The notes beneath the pieces were generated by a model. That model was not told the origin of the DNA and made no database searches. It saw only the letters and a program-made list of their open reading frames with translations. Position numbers and translations under genes: made by a program. From Dehalococcoidia bacterium (GTDB lineage Bacteria > Chloroflexota > Dehalococcoidia > UBA2979), in NCBI GenBank assembly GCA_019694855.1, contig JAIBBD010000004.1:9753-73752 (forward strand): a DNA stretch of 64,000 nt, in the 5' to 3' direction. Positions within the stretch are counted from its first letter, which is position 1. Every line of letters begins with the position of its first letter. Below, piece by piece: positions 10,560-64,000 of this stretch.

Positions 10560-12442
10560 ATCGACCGTTTGACGGTCTCCGCGAGACGGCGCGTGAAGCC
10601 CACCGTCGTGGCGATCTCCTCCACGCTCGCCTCCTGCAGCGCCCGCACTGAGCCGAACTTCCGCAAGAGCGCGCGCTTACGCCGCGGCCCGACGCCTGGA
10701 ATCGAGTCGAGGACGGAGCGCTGAGCCGACTGCCCGCGCAGCTTGCGGTGGTACGTGATCGCGAAGCGGTGAGCCTCGTCCCGTACGCGCTGGATCAGGT
10801 ACAGCGCCTGCGAGTCGCGAGGCAGCACGATCGGCTCGTCGACGTCCTTGACGAACACCTCCTCTTCACGTTTCGCGAGGCCGCACACCGGAACGTCCGC
10901 CAGCTCGAGGTCGCGCATGACGTCGAGCGCCGCCCCCAGCTGCCCCTTCCCGCCGTCGATGATGACGAGGTCCGGGACGATGTCCCACGCCGTCGGCTCC
11001 TCTTCCGCCGCGTCCACTTCGGCCGTCTCGGCCTGCGTCACGGTCGCCTCGCGCCGCCGGCGGCGGCTTGCGGCCAGCCGCGAGAAGCGCCTCGTCAGTA
11101 CCTCCCGCATCGAGGCGAAGTCATCCTGCCCCTCGACGGTCTTGATGCGGAAGCGCCGGTACTGGCCGTTCACCGGGGCGCCCTGCTCGAAGACCACCAT
11201 CGAGGCGACAGTGTTCGTCCCCTGGATCGTCGAGATGTCGTAGCACTCGATCCGGTTCGGCGGTGCCGGGAGATCGAGCTCGTCCTGCAGCAGCGTCATC
11301 GCAGCCTGCGTCTTGTCGCGGTCCGACATCCAGCGCACGCGGTGAGCGGCGAGCGTCGAGCGGGCGTTTTCCTCGGCGCTCGCGACCAGCTGGCGCAGCT
11401 CCCCTCGCTCCGGCACGCGGATCTCGACGGCGCTCCCGCGCCGCTCGCGCAGCGCCGCCTGCAGCTCCTCGAGATCGTCCGGTCGCATCGACAGCAGGAC
11501 GTTGCGAGGTACATACGTAGCCGACTCGAAGAACTGCGCGAGGAACGCTGACAGCACCTCGGCGTCCGAGGCATCCTGGGTCCCGTCGAGCATGAAGGAA
11601 TCGGTGTCCGCGACCGCCGTGCCGCGCACGAAGAACACCTGCACGCACGCCTCGTCACCGGACCGCGCGAGCGCGAACACGTCCGCGTCGAGCGGTGTCG
11701 TCGTCGCCATCTGCTGGCGCTCGGTCACGCGCCGGATCGCCTCCGCCTGGTCGCGCAGGCGGGCCGCGCGCTCGAACTCGAGGTCGTCCGAAGCCTTGAG
11801 CATCTCCGCCTCGACGTGGTCGAGTACCTCGCGGCTCCGTCCGTCGAGGAAGAGCACGGTCTGGTTGATGACCTCGTCGTACTCCTCCTTCGTACAGAAG
11901 GCGGTGCATGGGGCGATGCAGCGCTTGATGTAGTAGTCGAGGCAGGGACGGGGGTCCGTGCCGGTGATCGGCTTCGTGCATGACCGCCAGGGAAACAGCT
12001 TCTTCACCACGTCGAGCGTCCGCCGCACCGATCCCGCAGACGCGTATGGCCCGAAGTAGCGCGCCCCGTCGGCCTCGACGCGCCGTGTGATCGTCACCCG
12101 CGGCCACGGGTTTTGCACATCCACCTTCAGGTACGGGTAGTGCTTGTCGTCCTTCAGCCGCACGTTGTACTGCGGCTGGTGCCGCTTCACGAGCGTTGCC
12201 TCGAGGAGCAGGGCCTCCGCCTCGTTTCGCGTCAGCACGTGGTCAACGGTGACCACGAGCTGCGCCAGTGCCAGCACCTTCGGCTCGAGGCTCCGCGATG
12301 ATCCGAAGTAGGACCGCACCCGCGACCGGAGGTTCGTCGCCTTACCGACGTACAGCACGTCCCCGCGGACGTCTCGCATGATGTAGACGCCTGGGCGCTC
12401 GGGAAGCGCTCGTACCTGCTGCAGGACGCCGGGATCGGTCAC
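10556..12442 (-). CDS. uvrC: excinuclease ABC subunit C
   Basis: 628 aa. N-terminal GIY-YIG (PGVYIMRDVRGDVLYVGKATNLRSRVRSYF), a UvrBC interaction region, and C-terminal RNaseH-like and HhH domains. Confidence 0.95.
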   Translation of the reverse strand: MTDPGVLQQVRALPERPGVYIMRDVRGDVLYVGKATNLRSRVRSYFGSSRSLEPKVLALAQLVVTVDHVLTRNEAEALLLEATLVKRHQPQYNVRLKDDKHYPYLKVDVQNPWPRVTITRRVEADGARYFGPYASAGSVRRTLDVVKKLFPWRSCTKPITGTDPRPCLDYYIKRCIAPCTAFCTKEEYDEVINQTVLFLDGRSREVLDHVEAEMLKASDDLEFERAARLRDQAEAIRRVTERQQMATTTPLDADVFALARSGDEACVQVFFVRGTAVADTDSFMLDGTQDASDAEVLSAFLAQFFESATYVPRNVLLSMRPDDLEELQAALRERRGSAVEIRVPERGELRQLVASAEENARSTLAAHRVRWMSDRDKTQAAMTLLQDELDLPAPPNRIECYDISTIQGTNTVASMVVFEQGAPVNGQYRRFRIKTVEGQDDFASMREVLTRRFSRLAASRRRRREATVTQAETAEVDAAEEEPTAWDIVPDLVIIDGGKGQLGAALDVMRDLELADVPVCGLAKREEEVFVKDVDEPIVLPRDSQALYLIQRVRDEAHRFAITYHRKLRGQSAQRSVLDSIPGVGPRRKRALLRKFGSVRALQEASVEEIATTVGFTRRLAETVKRSI

Positions 12443-12515
12443 GAGTTCAAGTGTAGCGCCGCCGCCGGGGCGCCGATTCGAGGGCGGTCGGGACGGTCGA
12501 ACGAGATGGTTGAAG

Positions 12516-12591
12516 TGGCGCGCCCGGTAGGATTTGAACCTACGACCTCAGCCTCCGCAGGGCTGCGCTCTATCCCCTGAGCTACGAGCGC
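12516..12591 (-). tRNA. tRNA-Arg, anticodon read as GCG
   Basis: The reverse complement folds as a canonical 76-nt cloverleaf: acceptor GCGCUCG/CGGGCGC, U8 A9, D-arm GCUC...GAGC, anticodon stem CAGCC/GGCUG, loop C-U-GCG-G-A, T-loop UUCAAAU, 3' CCA encoded. It closely resembles bacterial tRNA-Arg(ACG) but has G34. Confidence 0.85.
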
Positions 12592-12613
12592 GCGTCAAAC
12601 AGAACGTCAAACC

Positions 12614-12700
<87 letters not shown>

Positions 12701-12727
12701 CCGAACTTCGCGTCTGCGTCCTTTCGC

Positions 12728-12804
12728 TGGTGGGCCGTAGTGGACTTGAACCACTGACCTCTCGCGTGTGAAGCGAGCGCTCGTACCAACTGAGCTAACG
12801 GCCC
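12728..12804 (-). tRNA. tRNA-Val (CAC)
   Basis: 77-nt cloverleaf. Acceptor GGGCCGU/ACGGCCC, D-loop AGUUGGUA, anticodon loop UU-CAC-AC, T-loop UUCAAGU, CCA encoded. Confidence 0.9.
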
Positions 12805-12867
12805 GCGTCGACGCCTTCGCGAATGCCTAGCGTATCGCCCGCGCTCACCCGGTTCAACTCGGTCGCC

Positions 12868-15800
12868 TCACTCACCACGGGCACGTGATTCGAGCGCGAG
12901 GTCCGCGCCGTGCCGCAGCGTCCGCGTCGCGATGACGCGAGGCCAGGCGAACCGCTGCACGAACCCCGGCTCGCCCGGCTGGGCTCCGTCGAGGGGTGAC
13001 AGTAGGGACTTCAGCGCGGTGCGGCCCTCCGCAGTCGGCCCCAGCGCCTGGTACGCAGCCCGGCACGTCGAGGCTCCGCTGTCGGTCACCACGAGGTCGA
13101 CCCATGCCTCACCCGCCCGGGCCGCGACGTCGCCTCGCGCCACGGTGAGCACGTCCCCGGGCACGCCCTCGTGCTGCAGCGCCTCGACGAGCGGGCCGAG
13201 GTGCGGAGCCGCGACGACTGCGACGCTGTTCCCCGCCACCAGTGTCGCTGCCAGCCAGCTCGGTGCCTGGGCGCCCCTCACCGCGAGGAGTGCGCGCCCG
13301 CGAGGCCAGTCGTAGCGCAGCTCGGTGTGCTGCCCCGCGGCCTGCACCGTCGGCGCGGGACGACCCAGCTCGCGCCTCGCCGCCTGCACCACATCGAGGA
13401 TCTGCAGCGCCTCGTCGGTGTCGCCTCCGCCGACTCGCGCGGCGCACCGCTCGAGGACCGCGATGCGATCTTCGAGGCTTGCCTCCCACCTCGGAGCCAG
13501 CCTGGGGGCCGCCGTGTCAGTCGCGATGCCATCGACGCCTTCGAGAGTGCCACGTTCGTCCTCGGGTACGTCTGTGCGCCGTACGAACGCCGACAGGGAG
13601 TCGGGCCCGCCCGCCTTCGGCCCCGTCCCCGACATCGCCATCCCGCCGAACGGCTCCACCCCCGGCCGCGCGCCCGTTGTCCCGCGGTTCACGTAGATGT
13701 TCCCCGCCCGTAGCGCCGAGGTAGCTCGCTCCACCGTCGAGGGGCTGCGCGAGTACACGCCGGCTGTCAGCCCGTACGCCGTCCCGTTCGCGATGTCATA
13801 GGCCTCCTCCTCGTCATCGAACGGGATCACGACGAGGATCGGCCCGAACAGCTCCTCGGTCGCCGTGGACGAGGACAGCGCCTGCGCGGCGTCCATCTGC
13901 ACGATCAACGGCCCCGCCTGCAGCGCCGTCGCGTCGAACAGGTCGAGGAGGACTTCGCCTTCGCGCCGCGCCTCGGCCGCCGCGCTCTGGAGTCGATCCC
14001 ACGCGCGCCGGTCGATGATCGGGTTCACCTCCGTCGCCGCCGCGTCCGCCGGGCCAATGTGTAGGCTGCGTGCGGCCTCGACGAGTCGGGCCGAAAGTCG
14101 ATCCAGGACGGACCGCTCGACGAGGACACGCGACACGGCCGAGCACTTCTGGTTCGCATGCCCGAACGAGGAGTGCACGATGCTGTCGACGGCCTCGTCC
14201 ATGTCCGCATCCGCAAACACGAGGGCGGCGTTCTTGCCGCCCATCTCTGCCACGAGCGCCTTCACGACGCCGTCTCGAGGTATGACCCGCGCCACGTCGT
14301 CATGCATCTGCACGCCCACGCCGCGGGAGCCGGTAAACGCCACCATCGCCACGTCCGGGCTCTCCACGAGCGCCTGCCCCGCTTCGGAGCCGTGCCCGGG
14401 CAGGCACACCAGCGCCCCCCGAGGCACCCCGGCCTCGTGCAACAGCGCGGTCAGCCGCAGTGCGACCAGCGGCGTCTGACCAGCCGGCTTCAGCACGACG
14501 CCGTTCCCCGTCGCCAGCGCCGCCACCGTCATCCCGCACGGGATCGCCAGCGAGAAGTTCCACGGCGGGATGACCGCCACCACCCCGCGAGGAGCGACGC
14601 GCCCCTCGAAGTCCCGGAACAGTTGCTCGGCCTGCACGGCGTAGTACCGCAGGTAATCGACCGCTTCGACGACCTCCGCCCACGCCCCCGCCCGGTCGCG
14701 TCCCCCTTCGAGCACGATCCAGGCGGCGAACGCGTGCGCACGCTCTTCGAGGAAATCCGCTGCCCGCCGCAGTATCCGAGCTCGCTCGCCCACCGGCGTC
14801 GTCGCCCACGGCGTGCTTCCCTCGCGCACCGCCGAGGCCACGCGTCGCGCCGTCTCGGCGTCGACGAACGGCACGACGCCGACCGGCCCCTCGTCGGGGT
14901 GCGATGGCGAATGGATCGCTACCGCCTCGCCGGCGAGCGCCTCGTCGCCGGCTCGAACCTCGTACGTCCGTCCCCATTGGGCCCGCGTCGAGGTCAGTGC
15001 ACGCTCGAATTCTTCGCGAAACCCCGCGTCGAACCACCGTGCCTCGGCCATCCGCACGAAGCCGCCCTCGCCGGCTGGCGCCGCGGCCGAATCGTCCGGC
15101 CGTTCCGCCGGCGGCCGCAGCAGCTCCTCAGGCTTGGCGCCGCCGCGGCTCTGCAGCAGGAACCCGGCTTGCGAGGAGTTCTCCAGCACTCGCCGTACGA
15201 GGTAGGCCATGCCCGGTAGCAGCTCGCCCACCGGTACGTAGTCACGCGTCGGCCATCCCATCCCGGCGAGTGCGCGGCTCATCCCCTCGTACGTCCGGAA
15301 CAACGTCTGGTGTTCGACCGTCCCCGAGGGCAGTCCCGCGGCCTCGGCGAGCGCCTCAGCCATCGCGTGTGAGCGCGCGTTGTGGCTGGCAACAGCCAGC
15401 CGGAGGTGTGGGTGGCCGCCGAGGAGTGTGCCTGCCGCCCGCTCGAACGATCGGTCGGTCGCGGCCTTCTCACTCCACACGGGCGCCGGCCAGCGATTGG
15501 CTGACGCCGTGATCGTCTCGAAGTCCCAGTACGCGCCCTTCACGAGCCGCACCTGGAACGGCGTCCCACGCTCCCGCGCAAACGCGACTATCGAGGCGGC
15601 GTTCGCCTCCGCGCTCCGCAGGTAGGCCTGCAACACGATCCCCGCGTCCGCCCAGTCTCCGAGCCGCTCTCCGCGCGCGAACGTGCGGCGGAACACCTCC
15701 CAGGTGAGGTCGCGATACGCGTGCTGCTCCATGTCGACGGTGAGCCCGATCCCCGCCCGCCGCGCCGCGTCCGCGATCGCCTCGAGAGGTGGGCGGACGC

Positions 15801-16440
15801 GCGCGATCGTCCCGTCCGGGTCCACTGGCGTGAATAGCGAGGTGAGCGACGACAGCTTGATTGAGAACTGCAGCGCCGGCGCCCCCGAGGCGGTCCGTTG
15901 CTGTGCCTGCGGCTCGCGCCTCAGCTGGTCGACCATCGCCAGGTACCGCTCGACGTACGACAGCGCCTCGGCTTCGCTCAGCACGGCCTCGCCCAGCAGG
16001 TCGAAGGAGGGCGCGCGTCCATGCCGCTCGAGGTACGTGAGCGTCTCACGGACGCTCTCCTCGCCGGGCGGCGTGATGAACCGCCGCGCGAACAGCTCCG
16101 CCGACCGCCGTGCGGTCTCGCCGACGACCGGCGCTGGCAAATGCTCGTCGCGGCCGACCCGGAGCAGCCAGCGCAGCGGTCGAGGCAGTCCCGGGAAGTC
16201 GTCGCCGAAATACTCGGCTGCGAGCCGCTTCGCCTCGTGCCCGTGGCGGTCATGGTCGAGCGAGGCGAGGACATCCATGTACCGCAGCAGCCGCGCGCGG
16301 AACCGCTCGTCGGCCACCGCGTTCGTGAGCAGCCAGTCCTCGATGCGCTCCGCCGGCCCCGCGCGGTACCCCGCGGCCCGTTCGAGCAGGGCGCGGCCGA
16401 GTTCCTGTGTCCGAGCTTCGAGGGCGGGATCGAGTGCCAT
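12868..16440 (-). CDS. putA: bifunctional proline dehydrogenase / L-glutamate gamma-semialdehyde (P5C) dehydrogenase PutA, long form with an extra C-terminal domain
   Basis: An N-terminal PRODH TIM-barrel region ([16 protein letters not shown]) is followed by an ALDH domain with catalytic Cys/Glu context ([17 protein letters not shown]) and about 250 further residues. The start was chosen at the ATG at 16440 ([10 protein letters not shown]) rather than the track's GTG at 16473. Confidence 0.9.
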
Positions 16441-39147: not shown

Positions 39148-40847
39148 CGAGCGGTACGCCGACCACGCCTTGCCAGCAGATCGTGCTCGTCGGTCTCTCC
39201 GGCGCCGGCAAATCGACCGTGGGTGCGATCCTCGCCCGCCGCCTCGGCTGGCCGCTCATCGACACCGACGATCTCGTCGCGAAGCGCCACGGCAGCACGC
39301 CCGCCGAGATCATCACCTCGAAAGGTGAGCCCGCCTTCCGTGAGATCGAACGCGCGGCCGTCCACGAGGCGGCCCAGCAGACGCCCGCGGTCATCGCGAC
39401 CGGAGGCGGCGCGTTCCAGCTGCCGGCTTCCCGCGCGGCCCTCGGCGAGCGCGGTCTCATCTGCTACCTCGACGCGACGCCCGGCGAGATCGCGCGCCGC
39501 CTGCGCGCGGCGCCTGACGCCAGCGACCGCCCCCTCATCGCGGGCGACGACCCTGAGAGCCGACTCCAGCAACTCGATGCCGAACGCCGCCTCGCGTACA
39601 GTCACGCCGATCTCTGGGTGCCCGTGCAGGGCATGGATCCCGAGACGGCCGCCGCCCGCATCCTGCACACCTGGGCGACCGAGGCCGACCGGCTGCGCTC
39701 GCTGCCCCTCCGCCTCGACCGCCTCGGCGCGGCGCGCCCCTCGGCCGTACCCGAGGCGCTGGTCGACACCGGCCAGGACCGCTACCCGATCTGGATCGGG
39801 TCGGGCCAGCTCACCCGTCTCCCCGAGCGGCTCCGCATGGTCGGCGTCACGGGCCGGGTCTTCCTCATCTCCGACACCAACGTCATCGAGGCGCACGGCA
39901 TGCGCATCGCCCAGGCCCTCGATGGTGCGGGCATCCCCGGGGCCTCGTACATCGTCCCCGCCGGCGAGGCCTCAAAGACGCTTCGTGTCGCCGATGAGCT
40001 GTACCGCTGGCTCGCCGAGCAGCGGGCCGAACGTCGCGACGCGATTCTCGCCCTCGGTGGTGGCGTGATCGGCGACCTCGCGGGATACGTCGCCGCCACC
40101 TACCTCCGCGGCATGCCGCTCATCCAGGCGCCGACCTCGACGCTGGCCATGAACGACGCTGCCATCGGCGGCAAGGTTGCCGTCGACCTCCCGGCCGGGA
40201 AGAACCTGGTCGGCGCCTTCCATCAGCCGCACGCCGTCATCGCGGACACGGACACCCTGCGCACATTCCCGAGGCGCTCCTACACCGAGGGCTTTGGCGA
40301 GGTGATCAAGCACGCTCTCATCCTCGACCCCCCGCTGCTGCGTGACCTCGAACGACACGCTGGCTCGCTCGCCGCCGGGACACCGGATCCCGAGGTTTTG
40401 GCGAGCGTCTTCACGCGGTCGGCGCGCCTCAAGGCGCTGGTGGTGTCGGCGGACCCCACCGAGCGTGGTCTGCGTGCCATCCTGAACTACGGCCACACCA
40501 TCGCCCACGGCATCGAGGCCGCCGCCGGCTACGGCAACGACTACCTCCACGGTGAAGCTGTCGCCGTCGGCATGATGGGCGCGGCGCGCATCGCCGTTCG
40601 CTTGGGACTCCTCGACGAGGAGGTCCTCGCTCGTCAGGGCGACGTGTTGCGCGCCTTCGGTCTGCCTCTTTCGGCGCCCGGCGTCCCCGCGAATGCGATC
40701 CTGAATGCCATGCGTCTCGACAAGAAGGTCGTCGCCGGCAGGCTGCGCTTCATCCTGCTCGAGGACGTCGGCCGCCCCGTCGTCCGCGACGACGTCCCCG
40801 AAGACCTCGTCGCCGAAGTCGTCCGGGGACTCGTCGCCAGCTCGTGA
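39144..40847 (+). CDS. aroKB: bifunctional shikimate kinase / 3-dehydroquinate synthase (AroK-AroB fusion)
   Basis: One continuous frame. The N-terminal ~170 aa is shikimate kinase (IVLVGLSGAGKSTVG Walker A, IDTDD, ATGGG lid). From about residue 215 it is dehydroquinate synthase (GGGVIGDLAGYVAATYLRG, TLAMNDAAIGGK, NYGHTIAHGIEA metal site). The ATG overlaps the aroC stop. Confidence 0.88.
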   Translation: MTSGTPTTPCQQIVLVGLSGAGKSTVGAILARRLGWPLIDTDDLVAKRHGSTPAEIITSKGEPAFREIERAAVHEAAQQTPAVIATGGGAFQLPASRAALGERGLICYLDATPGEIARRLRAAPDASDRPLIAGDDPESRLQQLDAERRLAYSHADLWVPVQGMDPETAAARILHTWATEADRLRSLPLRLDRLGAARPSAVPEALVDTGQDRYPIWIGSGQLTRLPERLRMVGVTGRVFLISDTNVIEAHGMRIAQALDGAGIPGASYIVPAGEASKTLRVADELYRWLAEQRAERRDAILALGGGVIGDLAGYVAATYLRGMPLIQAPTSTLAMNDAAIGGKVAVDLPAGKNLVGAFHQPHAVIADTDTLRTFPRRSYTEGFGEVIKHALILDPPLLRDLERHAGSLAAGTPDPEVLASVFTRSARLKALVVSADPTERGLRAILNYGHTIAHGIEAAAGYGNDYLHGEAVAVGMMGAARIAVRLGLLDEEVLARQGDVLRAFGLPLSAPGVPANAILNAMRLDKKVVAGRLRFILLEDVGRPVVRDDVPEDLVAEVVRGLVASS

Positions 40848-53715: not shown

Positions 53716-54696
53716 ATGGACAGTGTTTGGCGTAGCCGCGGCATGCGTGACTTCGGCCCGGACGCCATGCGCCGCTTCCGCCGCGTTGAGCGCGCCTTCC
53801 TCGATGTCACCGCAAGCCGCGGCTATGCCGAGATCCGCACGCCCGCTATCGAACCGATCCATCTGTTCACGGCCACCGGGTCGCTCTCACCGCAGCTCCT
53901 CGACCGCGTGTACTCATTCCTCGACTGGGACGGCTGGAGTGGCGAACGCGTCGTCCTACGGCCCGACAGCACCGTCCCCGCCGCCCGCTGGTATGAGACG
54001 AATTGGCGCGATGCCTCGCCGGCCCGTCTCTCCTACGTCCAGCCCGTCTACCGCTTCGAGCCCGGAGACGCCGAGCGCGAGCAGTGGCAATGCGGCGTCG
54101 AGCTGTTCGGACTCGAGGCGCTCGAGGCGGACGGCGAACTGTTGCGGCTTGCCGCCGACTTCCTCGCCGCGCTCGGACTCGATGACCTCACGTTCGACCT
54201 CTCGCACGCGGGCCTCATCCGAGCCGTCCTCGTGGCCGGCGGCCTCGACGCCGTCGAGCAGCTCGCTGCCTACGACCGTCTCCTCGGGGGAGACCAGACT
54301 ATTCTCGCGGACCTCAGTGCACGCCACCCGGAGCGAAGCGCCGCCCTGCGCCTCCTCTTCGACGTGAACGGCGCGGGCGGCGGTTACATCGCGAATCTCC
54401 GCGCTACCCTCGGGGCGGCAATCCCCGACACCGAGGAGCCCCTCCTCGAACTCGAGGCCGCGGCCGCCGCCCTCGACGAGGCCGGATGCACGTACCGTCT
54501 CGTCCCCGCCACCGCGCGCAACTTCGAGTACTACACCGGGCTCACGTTCCGCCTCAGCTCCGGCGCAACCGAGTGCATCCGGGGCGGGCGCTACGACGGC
54601 CTGGGCGCCGCCCTCGGGGAGCGCTCCGCGCCCGCGTCGGGCTTCGGCGCCGACATCGTCAGCCTCGCTCGCCTGCTCGAGGCCTTCGAGGAATGA
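53716..54696 (+). CDS. hisZ: ATP phosphoribosyltransferase regulatory subunit HisZ (HisRS paralogue)
   Basis: Class II aaRS-like catalytic core without the anticodon domain (RGMRDFGPDAM..., GYAEIRTPAIEP, ERVVLRPD, GGRYDGL). Start chosen at ATG 53716 after a GAGGAGA RBS; the track ORF begins at 53653. Confidence 0.85.
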   Translation: MDSVWRSRGMRDFGPDAMRRFRRVERAFLDVTASRGYAEIRTPAIEPIHLFTATGSLSPQLLDRVYSFLDWDGWSGERVVLRPDSTVPAARWYETNWRDASPARLSYVQPVYRFEPGDAEREQWQCGVELFGLEALEADGELLRLAADFLAALGLDDLTFDLSHAGLIRAVLVAGGLDAVEQLAAYDRLLGGDQTILADLSARHPERSAALRLLFDVNGAGGGYIANLRATLGAAIPDTEEPLLELEAAAAALDEAGCTYRLVPATARNFEYYTGLTFRLSSGATECIRGGRYDGLGAALGERSAPASGFGADIVSLARLLEAFEE

Positions 54697-56108
54697 GCGG
54701 CGAGATTCGCGTCGCCCTCCCCCGTGGCGAGCTGCGCGACGCGCTCGCTGAGCAGCTACGCGACGTCGGCTTCGTCCCCGCAGGCTACGGTGAAGGCTCC
54801 CGCGCCTACCGCTTCGAGGTGACCGGGCACCCGGCCGTCGTCGTCCGCGTGTTCTCCGACCGCGACATCCCGATCCAGGTCGCGCTCGGCCAGTACGACC
54901 TGGGCATCACCCGCAGCGCCTGGGTCGACGAGCTGCTCGTCCGCCATGCCCAGGACTCGATCGTCCCGCTGCGCCCCCTCGATCTCGGCCGCGAGCGTCT
55001 GGTCGTGGCCGCCCCGGCCGGCACGGACCTCGCCGCGCTCGCTGCCTCTCGAGTGGTGCGCGTCGCCACCGAGTATCCGCACCTCACGTCACGTTTCCTG
55101 AATCGCCTTCGCGTCCCCTCGTATCGCCTGTACGAGGTCTGGGGTCAGGCCCAGGCCTGGCCCCCCGAGGACGCCGACGTCGCCGTCGTCCCGGAGCAGA
55201 CCCTCGCTGGCGAAGACCTTGTTGCCCTCGCCACCGTCCACGAGGGATCGCCGTGGTTGATCGCCAACCGTGCGTCCCTCGCCACTCGCGACCTCGCGAG
55301 CGCGCTCGATGCGCTCCTGCGCCTGCCGATGCAACCCGCCCCTGGAGGCCCCGTCGACCCGCCCCCGCTGCCCCGCACGCGCGCCCCACGCCTCACGGCC
55401 CTCGACGAGCGACAGAACTTCCGTATCGCCGTGCCCGACGGGCACGCGCAGCGCCACACCTTCGCCTCGCTCGCTGACGCGGGCATCGCCTTCGAAGGCT
55501 ACGAGGAGCGCGCCGCCATCCGCCGCCCGCGCTCGTCGCTCCCCGGGGTCGAGGTGAAGGTCATCCGTCCGCAGGACATGCCGATGGCCGTCGCCCTCGG
55601 CGCGTACGACCTCGCGCTGACGGGCCGCGACTGGCTCGCCGCCCACCTCTCGGCCTTCCCGGGCTCGCCCGTCGTCGAACTGGCCGACCTCCGGCGCAGC
55701 CGCTATTCGCTTGGTGCGGTCGTCCCCGAGGACCTGCCCGCCGACACGATCGAGGAGGCCATCGCCTACTGGCGTCGCGAAGACGCGAACCGCCCGATCC
55801 GCGTCGCCTCCGAGTACGTCGCCCTCGCCGACGACTACGCGCGTGAACGCCGTCTCGGCCGCTACCAGGTCATCCCCATCGCCGGCGCTTCCGAGGGCTT
55901 CGTCCCGGACGACGCCGAGATCCTCATCGAGGGCTCCGAGACCGGCACCACCCTGCGCGCCAACCGCCTGCGTATGATCGATATCACGATGGAGTCGACA
56001 AACTGCGCCATCGGCGCGCTGGAGCGCCCGGCCGGCCTCCGTGGCGAGCTCCGCGACCAGCTGGTCGAGCGCCTTCGCGCGGCCGCCGCCGCGCTCGTGG
56101 TGGCGTAG
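54693..56108 (+). CDS. hisG: ATP phosphoribosyltransferase HisG, apparent tandem duplication of the short-form fold (about 471 aa)
   Basis: The ATG overlaps the hisZ stop. Residues 1-210 show IRVALPRGEL, DIPIQVALGQYDLGITRSAW and a degenerate signature (GQAQAWPPEDADVAVVPEQTLAGEDL). Residues ~240-471 repeat the pattern with FRIAVPDGHAQ, DMPMAVALGAYDLALTGRDWL and an intact HisG signature (EGFVPDDAEILIEGSETGTTLRANRL). Confidence 0.8.
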   Translation: MSGEIRVALPRGELRDALAEQLRDVGFVPAGYGEGSRAYRFEVTGHPAVVVRVFSDRDIPIQVALGQYDLGITRSAWVDELLVRHAQDSIVPLRPLDLGRERLVVAAPAGTDLAALAASRVVRVATEYPHLTSRFLNRLRVPSYRLYEVWGQAQAWPPEDADVAVVPEQTLAGEDLVALATVHEGSPWLIANRASLATRDLASALDALLRLPMQPAPGGPVDPPPLPRTRAPRLTALDERQNFRIAVPDGHAQRHTFASLADAGIAFEGYEERAAIRRPRSSLPGVEVKVIRPQDMPMAVALGAYDLALTGRDWLAAHLSAFPGSPVVELADLRRSRYSLGAVVPEDLPADTIEEAIAYWRREDANRPIRVASEYVALADDYARERRLGRYQVIPIAGASEGFVPDDAEILIEGSETGTTLRANRLRMIDITMESTNCAIGALERPAGLRGELRDQLVERLRAAAAALVVA

Positions 56109-59902: not shown

Positions 59903-59918
59903 CCTTCGAGGCCCGGCG

Positions 59919-60422
59919 CTACGTCCCCTCGCCTCGCGGCTCCTCGTGCTCGGGCATGGACGCGCCGCTCCGCGCCTCCTCGCGCCGCCCGAGGCGTGAA
60001 CCGCGGTTCCGCTGCCGTCCCACGTCGTAGATCGCGTCTGAGAGCGGCGCCAGCTCCAGCAGCACCACCACCGTCACGGTGACCAGCGCCGCTGTGAGCC
60101 ACATGTCCTCCGCCACCGCCAGACCGATCCCTGCCAGTACCCACACCATTGCCGCTGTCGTGACGCCGCGCACCCCCACCCCGCGCTGGAAAATGAGCCC
60201 CGCCCCGAGGAAGCCGATGCCCTGCACGACCCCGGCCGCCACCCGCGAGTCGCCGTAGAGCACGCTCGTCTCCCCGAACAGCGCCGCCCCCACGCACACC
60301 AGCGCCGAGGTACGCACGCCCGCCTCGTGACCCCGAAACTCCCGCTCGACTCCGATCAGCCCACCGAGCAGCAACGCCAACAGCAGGTGCACGAACACCT
60401 CGAACTGATCGCCGTTGCTCAT
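59919..60422 (-). CDS. MgtC/SapB family membrane protein
   Basis: Start MSNGDQFEVFVHLLLALLLGGLIGVEREFRGH, the canonical MgtC N-terminus, with 4-5 TM helices. The upstream 62-aa extension in the track was rejected. Confidence 0.8.
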   Translation of the reverse strand: MSNGDQFEVFVHLLLALLLGGLIGVEREFRGHEAGVRTSALVCVGAALFGETSVLYGDSRVAAGVVQGIGFLGAGLIFQRGVGVRGVTTAAMVWVLAGIGLAVAEDMWLTAALVTVTVVVLLELAPLSDAIYDVGRQRNRGSRLGRREEARSGASMPEHEEPRGEGT

Positions 60423-60519: not shown

Positions 60520-60924
60520 ATGAACCTCGACTTTGCCTTCCTCTGCGACAGCGCCCAGGAGGGCGGCGGGAAGGTGCACGCCCTCGGCATCGGCTTCGAC
60601 ACCATCAACGCCGCCCAGGTCCCCGTGACCTACCCCCTCCTCACCATCGTCGTCCAGCTCCGCTACTCCATCGCCGAGGCGGGCGACAAGTCGATCTCCA
60701 TCCGCCTCATCGACGCCGACGGCCGCGACATCGTGACCCCGGTCGCCCAGACCGTGCCCTTCCCCGCCCCCGAGGGCGCCCGCTCGAACGCCGCCCGCCT
60801 CATCGTCGCCTTCGGCGGCGTCAACTTCGCCACCTACGGCGACTACGCCGCGCACGTCACCCTGAACGGCTCCGAGGTGGCCAGCCTGCCGATTGTCGTG
60901 CTGCCCGCTTCCGCGCCCGCATGA
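60520..60924 (+). CDS. hypothetical protein (134 aa) translationally coupled to hisN
   Basis: ATG at 60520; the stop overlaps the hisN ATG (ATGA). No recognisable domain. Beta-rich, with a hydrophobic C-terminus. Confidence 0.5.
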   Translation: MNLDFAFLCDSAQEGGGKVHALGIGFDTINAAQVPVTYPLLTIVVQLRYSIAEAGDKSISIRLIDADGRDIVTPVAQTVPFPAPEGARSNAARLIVAFGGVNFATYGDYAAHVTLNGSEVASLPIVVLPASAPA

Positions 60925-61754
60925 CCTCCACACCCGAGCTGCTCGCCTTCGCCCTCGAGCTCGCCGACCTCGCCGACGGCATCACGATGCGGCACTACCG
61001 AGGCGGCGGCGATGTCTGGCGCAAGTCGGACGGCACCCTCGTCACGCTCGCCGACACCTCGGCCGAGTCCGCCATCCGCGCGCGCATCCTGGAGCGCTTC
61101 CCCGACCACGCCGTCGAGGGCGAAGAGGAGGGGCTCACGCTCCCCCCCATGCCGATGGACGAGCCCACGGACGAACCCGCCGAGGCAGCCCCGCCCGCCG
61201 ACCGCGTGAAGTGGATCGTCGACCCCATCGACGGCACCCATAACTTCGCCCGCGGCGCGCCCGTCTGGGCTACGCTCATCGCCTGCGAGGTCAACGGCCG
61301 CCTCGAGGTGGGCGTCGCCTCCGCCCCTGCCCTCGGCACCCGCTGGTGGGCCGCCCGCGGCGAAGGCGCGCACCGCCGCGACGCCCTCACCGGCATCACC
61401 GAGCGCATCCACGTCTCCACCCGCGCCCGCCTCGAGGACGCCCAGGTCCTCTACGGCTCCTACACCCTCACCATGGCCGCTTGGGGCGGCCGCGCCGACC
61501 GCCTCCTGCGCGCCAGCTGGCGTCAGCGCGGCTTCGGCGACTTCTGGGGCCACTGCCTGGTCGCCGAAGGCGCCGCCGAAGTCATGCTCGAAGGCGAAAT
61601 CGCCCCCTACGACATCGCCGCCGTCATGGTCATCGTGGAAGAAGCCGGCGGCCGCATGACCGACATCGAGGGCGTCGCGCGCATCGACGCCGGCCACTGC
61701 ATCACCTCGAACGGCGTGGTGCATGACGAGGTGTTGGGGGTGTTGGAGGGGTAA
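60921..61754 (+). CDS. hisN: inositol monophosphatase family protein, probable histidinol-phosphatase (HisN-type)
   Basis: IMPase metal motifs WIVDPIDGTHNF and the EE...DP context (AVEGEEEG). The his-cluster context suggests HisN. Confidence 0.75.
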   Translation: MTSTPELLAFALELADLADGITMRHYRGGGDVWRKSDGTLVTLADTSAESAIRARILERFPDHAVEGEEEGLTLPPMPMDEPTDEPAEAAPPADRVKWIVDPIDGTHNFARGAPVWATLIACEVNGRLEVGVASAPALGTRWWAARGEGAHRRDALTGITERIHVSTRARLEDAQVLYGSYTLTMAAWGGRADRLLRASWRQRGFGDFWGHCLVAEGAAEVMLEGEIAPYDIAAVMVIVEEAGGRMTDIEGVARIDAGHCITSNGVVHDEVLGVLEG

Positions 61755-61867
61755 TCACCCGTGGCACCCCCGTCCTATCGGCCGGCACGGAACTTCATGA
61801 ATCTCGTCGGGGAAGATTGTCCACAGACGAGTGCTTGGCCGCCCCCACGGCGATGTCATACCGTTAG

Positions 61868-64000
61868 CGCGATGACGAATCCCCTCCCCAACGTCGACTT
61901 CCGACAGATTCGGCCCTATGGGCAGCCGGCTTCCCGATCGAGCGGGTTCGAGGAGCTCGCGTCGATCTTGATCGAGCATGGCGCGGTCGACTGGCCTAGC
62001 GGCACACGATTTCACCGCTTCGGGAACCCCGATGGCGGCCGCGAGGCGAAGGCTGTGCTCCCGAATGGGGACGTCTGGGCATGGCAGGCAAAGTACCTAT
62101 TCGAATTCGATTCGTCTGCGGCCGGACAGGTGACTTCCTCAGTGCGTCGTGTTCTGGAGAGTGAACCGGACCTGAAGCGCTATTTCGTCGCTATGCCGCT
62201 AGACATGCCAGCAGGCGACACGAAAGACCGCACGTCGGCGCACACGCGCTGGACTGAGAAGGTCTCCGAATGGGAGCAGCTTGCTCGCAAGAACAACCTT
62301 AACGTGGAGTTTGTCTTCGTCGGCGCCCATCAGCTCGTCACGACGCTAACTGAGGCTGAGCACGCTGGCCGCCTACGGTACTGGTTCGGCCTCGACATCT
62401 TGACCCCCGAATGGCAGGAGCGTCGCCTTGAGGAGGCCAAAGCAAAGGCGGGGCGCCGCTATACGCCAAGCCTCCACGTGGAAGTGGAGGCAGTCCGGTC
62501 CCTCGATGCGGTCGGCCGCCGCGATGCTTACGTGTCACGATGGCAGGCGATCCTCGCCGAATTGAGGGAAGCCCGACGATGGACTTGGCGGCCGCCGAAG
62601 GACGCCGCTGACGAGTTTGCCGAGGCACTTCCTAAGTGCGAAGCCGCACTCGATGAGGCCGACGTGGCACTTGGACTCATGATTACCGCGGCCCGGTCGA
62701 CGGAGAATCTTCCTCGGATCGATAGCCCGCTCAACCTCGCGATGGAAGCCGTAGGCGAGGTGGAAGAACTCCTTCACCGACACTCGTTGACCAAAGGCGG
62801 CTATTTCGTTGGAGATGCTGCCTCCCTGTACTCGCACATACGAGATGCGATCGGTGCGCTGTGGCAGGCCAGAGAGCTCGCGAACGCCGCGGCGACACAC
62901 GCGGCACGTGACAAGGTACTTCTCGTAACAGGACGCGCTGGCGTCGGAAAGACGCATCTCCTATGCGATGTGGCGACTCGGCGAACTGCTGACGGGTACC
63001 CAACTGTTGTCCTTCTCGGGCAGGACTTCGATGGCAGGTCGCTACTCTCGCAAATCAGCGAACGGACACAACTCGGTGGGACACTGGACGACATCCTGGG
63101 TGTGCTCGATGCTGCGGCGGAAGCCTTCAGCTGCACTGCGCTCTTGATCATCGACGCGCTAAACGAGAGCGAACGTGCCGAGCGTTGGAGGGATGAATCT
63201 CGAGCTCTACTCGCCGCTGCCACCCGCTTTTCTCACATAGCAGTAGTGCTGTCTTGCCGCTTGGAGTTCGTTGAGAAGGTCATTGGTGACCACCGACTGC
63301 CAACGGTCGAGCACGTCGGTTTTGCAGAAGCGACCGACGTTGCTGTTCAACGATTTACCCGGGAATTTGGGCTGGAGCCACCGACGTTCCCTCTGCTCAA
63401 CCCGGAGTTCAGCAACCCGCTCTTCCTCAAGCTAACGTGTGAGGCCCTCTCAACGCTTGGGAGGACTCGCTTTCCCTTTGGTTCAGCCGGCCTCACTACG
63501 ATATACGAGGTCTTCTTGGAGGCTGTGAACAAGCGGCTTTCCGAACCCGATCGCTGCGACTATGACGAGCACAGCGACACAGTTGGCCAAGCGATACGAG
63601 AGATAGCGCTCCTCGGGCCCGGTCCGCTTGATCGAGCTGACGTGCAACGCATCACCGATAGGATTTTGCCCGGCCATTCGTGGTCTCGATCGCTGATGAA
63701 CGGGCTGATCTCCGAGGGAATCCTCCTGGAGATCTACGACAGGCGAATCGTCTTCGGATACCAGCGGTTGGGAGACATGACGCGCGCGGGCGTAATCGCC
63801 GAGAGGGGCCCAGATGGCGTGCGCGCGTGGCTCCAGCAGCTCGACGACGATGTCTGGCGCGAGGCGGGAGTGCTGGCCGCGCTGGCCGTGATCGTGCCGG
63901 AGCGCCACGGCCAGGAACTCGTCATCCTCGCCGCAGATGACGAAGGTAGGGTCTCATACCACATCGTCGACAGCTTTCTCGAGAGCCTGCTCCTTCGCGC
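61868..64000 (+). CDS. STAND (NACHT-like) P-loop NTPase with an N-terminal Mrr-like PD-(D/E)xK nuclease motif; candidate Avs-like antiviral defence protein, 3' truncated by the window end
   Basis: Open frame from ATG 61868 to the window end (711 aa, no stop; absent from the ORF track). aa 46-75 read HRFGNPDGGREAKAV...VWAWQAKY (Mrr catalytic GDGGID...QxK pattern). Walker A is LLVTGRAGVGKTHLL (aa ~351), Walker B ALLIIDALNESE (aa ~424), a sensor-1-like VVLSCR, and a GxP-like NPLFLKLTCEAL. GC is lower and codon usage differs from the neighbours. Confidence 0.75.

Follow-up and report, generated by a model that had tools for sequence, protein, structure and literature searches.

The 5' part of a very probable single-gene Avs2 defence system inserted downstream of hisN in a Dehalococcoidia bacterium

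At the end of a 64,000-nt stretch of DNA from a Dehalococcoidia bacterium of the phylum Chloroflexota (contig JAIBBD010000004.1, positions 9,753 to 73,752; the whole stretch is called here the window), a low-GC open reading frame (ORF) follows the his genes and runs off the edge, which raises the question of what kind of protein it encodes and how it came to lie there. The initial annotation regarded it as an Mrr-like nuclease fused to a STAND (signal transduction ATPases that have numerous domains) NTPase, i.e. a candidate Avs-like anti-phage protein, but considered that the family could not be settled within the window. We found that the family can be assigned in spite of the truncation. The frame very probably encodes residues 1-709 of a single-gene Avs2 protein with a full length of about 1394 residues, whose mechanism can be proposed by homology and whose gene has been recently and horizontally inserted into the intergenic region between the convergent genes hisN and purC of a high-GC Dehalococcoidia genome.

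Translation of the + strand reveals a stop-free frame from the ATG at 61872-61874 to base 63998, i.e. 709 codons that reach the end of the window (feature 61872..64000, +, codons 1-709 of about 1394). Given the base composition of the region, the chance of 709 codons without a stop is about 2e-10. The long uninterrupted frame described initially thus stands, but not its start at 61868, as that frame is interrupted by stops throughout. Two alternative in-frame starts lie 5' of the ATG at 61872, namely GTG 61761 and ATG 61797; the N-termini of homologs coincide with ATG 61872 (e.g. MPDAPDIDFARIRPYGQP).

Comparison of the 709-residue fragment with collections of defence-protein profiles points to Avs2 (AVAST type 2). 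The best match in PADLOC is the Avs2 model PDLC02164 (E = 4.3e-160, 533 bits), aligned over residues 6-709, i.e. over the NTPase and its flanks, and five additional PADLOC Avs2 models match at 204-346 bits. The sole strong NCBIfam match is likewise Avs2 (NF041813, E = 5e-90, 303 bits). No solved structure gives a real match apart from that of Avs2 from E. coli (EcAvs2, PDB 9o4e; E = 1.1e-45, residues 177-708), and this alignment brings the Walker A, Walker B, SxR and NPLFLKL motifs of the two proteins into register. The Avs-like architecture of nuclease and STAND NTPase proposed at the outset is therefore borne out by all three comparisons.

A full-length relative allowed us to examine the part of the protein that lies beyond the window. 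Scanning at the protein level for HisN brought up two Dehalococcoidia metagenome-assembled genomes, with HisN proteins 91% and 89% identical to that of the window, and one of them (JAWKPL010000001.1, here L002) carries the same Avs2 gene at 11800-15984. Its product is a full-length protein of 1394 residues, 98.6% identical to the fragment over the 709 residues. Its score on PDLC02164 is 989 bits, and its match to PDLC02162 runs end to end (residues 8-1328 against 3-1345 of the 1379 positions of the model). Residues 177-974 align with residues 165-989 of EcAvs2 (E = 6.5e-119), and residues 989-1321, within the last 420 residues of the protein, align with the C-terminal sensor of EcAvs2 (residues 1099-1442, E = 1.1e-35). 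The homology to a characterized Avs2 protein thus extends across the helical extension, the NTPase, the tetratricopeptide repeats (TPR) and the C-terminal sensor, and the tripartite effector/STAND NTPase/sensor layout is present, the sensor being visible only in the L002 orthologue. Over the 2127 bases shared by the two genes there are 31 differences, of which 21 fall in third codon positions, and the two proteins differ by 10 amino-acid changes; this predominance of third-position changes indicates purifying selection.

The N-terminal effector domain (residues 1-175; 62396 is its last base, 61872..62396, +) has the fold of an Mrr-like PD-(D/E)xK nuclease, with a helix-strand-strand-strand-helix-strand core. 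An alignment of 37 homologous N-terminal domains, down to 31% identity, shows that E27, E28, D54, G56, E58, W71, Q72 and K74 are invariant, and these residues match the Mrr-type pattern of a glutamate in helix 1, D-G-G-x-E and Q-x-K. The predicted catalytic residues accordingly comprise F26-E27-E28 in helix 1, D54-G-G-x-E58 and W71-Q72-A-K74 (61947..62096, +); the segment HRFGNPDGGREAKAV (residues 48-62) includes D54, and VWAWQAKY (residues 68-75) includes Q72 and K74. In the structure model, in which the domain has a predicted local distance difference test score (pLDDT) of 94, the signature is located on the helix 22-38, in the loop preceding strand 59-62 and on strand 68-73, and the domain as a whole has a restriction-endonuclease-like fold. 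The Foldseek matches agree with the Mrr-like fold, the figures of the fold comparison being 11.9 for EcAvs4, 9.8 for LlaBIII, 9.1 for both MspJI and AspBHI, and 8.7 for FokI. The alignment profile of the domain matches a single sequence in the PDB, the N-terminus of EcAvs4 (8dgf, E = 0.008). The Pfam families Mrr_cat (PF04471) and Mrr_cat_2 yield no match to the window protein at E <= 10, and each of them matches one of the 37 homologous domains (E = 0.088 and 0.11, respectively). Despite this failure of Pfam, the assignment of the modelled domain to the Mrr-like fold, also made in the initial annotation, is well supported by the invariant catalytic-type residues, the profile match to the EcAvs4 nuclease and the Foldseek comparison. 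By position and motif, K74 would be the counterpart of K71 in the Klebsiella pneumoniae protein KpAvs2, mutation of which abolishes defence (PMC11564622).

The effector domain is followed by a helical extension of approximately residues 176-343 (62397..62900, +; the boundaries are approximate), which aligns to EcAvs2 from residue 165 of the latter; a helical extension or bundle linking the effector and the ATPase has been described in both EcAvs2 and KpAvs2 (PMC13601566, PMC11564622). All motifs quoted in the initial annotation were found in the frame. The Walker A motif or P-loop GRAGVGKTHLL (residues 354-364; 62931..62963, +), which conforms to the GxxxxGK[ST] consensus in GRAGVGKT (residues 354-361), aligns with GKAGIGKSHLL of EcAvs2, and its lysine is K360 rather than K361 as numbered before. 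The Walker B motif LLIIDALNESE (residues 424-434, with the D428/E433 region; 63141..63173, +) has the expected hydrophobic stretch followed by acidic residues and aligns with VLVFIDAINEGN of EcAvs2. It is followed by VVLSCR (residues 458-463; 63243..63260, +), aligned with LIMSVR of EcAvs2, in which R463 is, judging from STAND NTPases in general, the probable sensor-1 arginine. The heptapeptide NPLFLKL (residues 515-521; 63414..63434, +) is identical in EcAvs2 (NPEFSNPLFLKL vs NPEFKNPLFLKL in 9o4e) and may act as a GxP-like motif. We regard the NTPase as a member of the STAND class because of its homology to EcAvs2, which has been described as a STAND NTPase (PMC13601566), and not on the basis of Pfam.

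The combination of nuclease and NTPase, considered possibly new in the initial annotation, is not new; it is the standard and commonest architecture of Avs2. The alignment to PDLC02164 starts at residue 6, so that the N-terminal domain is already included in the PADLOC Avs2 model; most Avs2 homologs use Mrr-like double-stranded DNA nucleases, the effector of EcAvs2 being of a less common type (PMC13601566); and the parts of KpAvs2 are laid out in the same way. A profile of the N-terminal domain, searched exhaustively, matches 2610 cluster representatives at E <= 0.001. In all of the 150 representatives that were listed the domain is N-terminal, the longest listed proteins having 1.38-1.63 thousand residues, and six of six sampled carriers of the domain are Avs2 according to PADLOC. 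With the N-terminal domain as sole query, a word-indexed search retrieved only close, unannotated fragments. The best overall match in the protein database is 69% identical, and the named relatives are mostly from Actinomycetota (Kribbella, Mycetocola, Blastococcus, Micromonospora and Arthrobacter).

As to how the gene came to lie in this place, composition and comparative genomics agree on horizontal acquisition, as suspected initially. As had also been noted, the frame adjoins his genes: to the left of it we identified hisG, hisD, hisC, hisB, an MgtC-like gene (minus strand) and hisN, the last of which encodes histidinol-phosphatase and is the native gene at the left side of the insertion (60921..61754, +; NCBIfam TIGR02067, E = 2e-68). 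According to blastn, the segment 61822..64000 (+), with its left edge at about 61822, is 98.1% identical to L002 11750-13928. The Avs2 gene is 98.5% identical between the two genomes, whereas the his genes to the left of the insertion are only 86% identical. The last two 1-kb bins of the window have GC contents of 0.620 and 0.602 (z = -3.2 and -4.0), below all of the other 61 bins (mean 0.691, standard deviation 0.022, minimum 0.638), in accordance with the lower GC content reported for the locus, and both GC and GC skew break at the left edge of the segment. In L002 the low GC is limited to 11500-16000, i.e. to the Avs2 gene itself. GC at third codon positions (GC3) is 0.69 in Avs2 versus 0.90-0.93 in hisD, hisC, hisB and hisN, and codons ending in A or T make up 31% versus 8%. 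The use of rare codons was confirmed for CTA (12.7 vs 1.3 per 1000) and ATA (7.1 vs 0) but not for TTA, which does not occur in frame at all.

In L004, L008 and L009, some 300 nt separate the convergent genes hisN and purC; the distance is 443-1275 nt in L005-L007 and 5539 nt in L002, with Avs2 inside. From the short gaps in the relatives it follows that Avs2 is an insertion into the hisN-purC spacer. Taken together, the 98.5% identical copy amid 86% identical flanks, the empty sites in relatives and the composition (GC3) indicate horizontal acquisition, and the lateral movement of this single-gene system is recent. In L002 the Avs2 gene stands alone between a hisN remnant and purC; no integrase, transposase or partner defence gene was found beside it, and no direct or inverted repeats bracket it. 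There is no tRNA within 20 kb of the Avs2 gene and no Rfam family nearby. The other close relative, L003, has no Avs2. Its site downstream of hisN is occupied by low-GC DNA (0.60-0.67) with ORFs containing RHS repeats (L003:16000-20801), and its his flanks are 91-93% identical to those of L002; the presence of Avs2 in one genome and of RHS-repeat ORFs in the other at the same place shows that the site 3' of hisN is variable between related genomes.

In the spacer that separates the stop codon of hisN from the start of Avs2 (61755..61871, +), neither an intrinsic terminator nor a sigma-70-like promoter was detected, the promoter scan covering sigma-70 consensus sites only. Across 61752-61874, hisN and Avs2 share a reading frame, with one TAA and 117 nt between them, and transcription of Avs2 may occur by read-through from hisN.

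We also observed that the last ~176 nt of hisN are duplicated in L002 (10631-10804 and 11573-11748; 97% identical, 944 nt apart), the second copy abutting the Avs2 insertion, while the window holds a single copy. A 217-aa ORF between the two copies was rejected as an Arg/Gly/Pro-rich out-of-frame artefact without a homolog. In L003, a ~130-nt copy of the hisN 3' end (L003:15803-15934) lies 5 kb downstream of hisN and borders the low-GC RHS-repeat region. These duplicated segments look like the scar of site-specific insertions into the 3' end of hisN, with no integrase seen. By a speculative extension that we think has a small chance of being right, this 3' end and the hisN-purC spacer might be a recombination hotspot at which cargo of the defence and toxin kinds (Avs2 in two genomes and, in a third, genes with RHS repeats) is exchanged through a mechanism that involves the duplicated 130-176-nt segment. 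The his region has a second variable spot at the junction of hisB and the MgtC-like gene (59904-60027), where 2.6 kb in L002 (6522-9099) and 4.8 kb in L003 (4303-9090) are present in addition to what is found in the window.

Characterized relatives, namely EcAvs2, KpAvs2, SeAvs3 and EcAvs4 (PMC13601566, PMC11564622), suggest by analogy how the protein could be triggered, oligomerize, cleave DNA and confer defence. It would rest as an autoinhibited monomer until a protein of the phage was bound by its C-terminal sensor, encoded beyond the window; this ligand is most probably the large terminase subunit, contacted in its ATPase domain. The STAND modules, with ATP bound, would then assemble into a tetramer, which would gather four N-terminal Mrr-like nuclease domains and activate them, and the resulting indiscriminate cutting of double-stranded DNA would abort the infection. 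In EcAvs2, a C4 tetramer forms on the terminase ATPase domain (PMC13601566).

Several points weigh against the assignment and the mechanism proposed here. The equivalog cut-off of NF041813 is 1000 bits, for a model that begins at residue 192 and therefore lacks the Mrr-like effector, and it is reached neither by the fragment (at its 303 bits) nor by the full-length L002 orthologue (715 bits). Such scores indicate a divergent Avs2 lineage, and no other family competes for the match. The Pfam Mrr_cat, NACHT and nSTAND models all remain below threshold; the bit scores of the fragment (with gathering cut-offs in brackets) are 18.6 (26.7) for NACHT, 19.8 (27.2) for nSTAND3, 12.3 (23.5) for NB-ARC and 22.5 (32.6) for AAA_16, and the matches to AAA_16, nSTAND3 and NACHT centre on the Walker A region. 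Such weak matches to many AAA families, together with the fact that no solved structure is closer to the N-terminal domain than EcAvs4, could be taken to mean that the protein belongs to another STAND defence family, e.g. Avs4, or is a generic NACHT/AAA+ protein devoid of a defence role. We consider this extremely improbable: the NCBIfam Avs4 model covers only residues 24-149 (E = 0.0045, 14 bits), PADLOC Avs4 is absent among matches that include six Avs2 models at 204-533 bits, and the alignment with EcAvs2 spans nearly the whole length of the NTPase and sensor. The PADLOC and NCBIfam results accordingly led us to reject membership of Avs4 as well as the readings as a generic AAA+ or a housekeeping protein.

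A further weakness is that the sensor half of the window copy lies outside the window and its intactness rests on the L002 orthologue. The copy might be in decay or already inactive, with a truncation or frameshift in the 685 3' codons outside our view and without current function, all the more as defence genes are frequently lost or degraded and no promoter-like site is found upstream. We judge this very unlikely, since the 709 visible codons are intact, no catalytic-type residue or Walker motif has been lost, most differences from L002 are synonymous (21 of the 31 in third positions), the L002 copy is full-length, and the search for promoters was restricted to sigma-70 consensus sites. Some Avs2 proteins do not act without partner genes, or have triggers other than terminase (PMC11564622): in vivo, KpAvs2 is switched on by Ksap1 and by further proteins that are not terminases (PMC11564622), and EcAvs2 responds also to Ksap1 and vs.8 (PMC13601566). 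Moreover, of the three EcAvs2 residues in the stretch 1128-1132 that contact the bridging ATP, T1128, R1130 and R1132 (PMC13601566), the first two align in the pairwise comparison with P and A of the L002 orthologue, and only R1132 is kept. These substitutions and the sub-cut-off NCBIfam score of the orthologue would be consistent with an actinobacterial/Chloroflexota Avs2 lineage of ~1394-residue proteins that senses something else than terminase (a small phage protein like Ksap, or a different protein with an ATPase fold), conceivably from actinobacterial or Chloroflexota phages, or that binds terminase in a manner unlike that of EcAvs2. This we find unlikely, as the homology of the C-terminal sensor to its EcAvs2 counterpart is clear (E = 1e-35), terminases activate all tested Avs2 proteins, the type of Avs2 sensor has been reported to be clade-specific (PMC13581612), and mutations of single bridging-ATP residues do not impair defence by EcAvs2 (PMC13601566). 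An intact Avs2 protein that would be triggered by terminase hence remains our preferred reading.

Two other features of the window were recorded in passing. At 40012-40110 (-) ARAGORN calls a 99-nt tRNA-Gly(gcc) for which the Rfam tRNA model is silent at its gathering score, unlike for three tRNAs at 12516-12804, which do pass Rfam; the call may be spurious, or the tRNA may be unusual or interrupted. In the 540-aa ORF at 54486-56108 (+), the match to hisG is confined to residues 313-509, and either the ORF is simply much longer than hisG, as is usual in high-GC DNA, or there is other coding content upstream.

Beyond annotation, the significance of the finding is small: the protein is a typical Avs2, of which the mechanism and the cryo-EM structure are known from homologs in E. 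coli and Klebsiella. It nevertheless documents Avs2 in high-GC Dehalococcoidia (Chloroflexota), a group with few studied phages, and the cleanly bounded insertion with empty sites in relatives makes a textbook case of the recent transfer of a single defence gene. As neither NCBIfam nor Pfam names the protein at curated thresholds, lineages of this kind are probably under-annotated.

Among known systems, KpAvs2 (Béchon et al. 2024, PMC11564622) shares by description the entire layout of an Mrr endonuclease, a helical bundle, a STAND NTPase and an Avs2 sensor. The catalytic lysine is situated near residue 71-74 in both proteins, and the Walker A lysine is K337 in KpAvs2 and K360 in the window protein. 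The K71A and K337A mutants of KpAvs2 lose defence, which involves non-specific DNA degradation and abortive infection (PMC11564622), so that the point mutants suggested in the initial annotation have in effect already been made (PMC11564622). KpAvs2 differs in that its operon comprises three genes, the other two encoding a radical-SAM protein and Avap2, of which it needs the latter, whereas the L002 gene stands alone, and in that the host of the window protein belongs to another phylum, Chloroflexota. EcAvs2 (PDB 9o4e; Evans et al. 2026, PMC13601566) has a homologous helical extension, STAND NTPase, TPR and C-terminal sensor, but its effector differs from the Mrr-like nuclease of the window protein, the alignment beginning only at residue 177, and the L002 orthologue is about 90 residues shorter. 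In EcAvs4 (PDB 8dgf) the effector domain alone is related (12-14% identity), while its NTPase and sensor represent a different Avs family, Avs4 sensing the portal protein. Finally, the restriction enzymes MspJI, AspBHI and LlaBIII possess Mrr-type domains in the context of modification reading, whereas here such a domain serves as an effector that a STAND NTPase controls.

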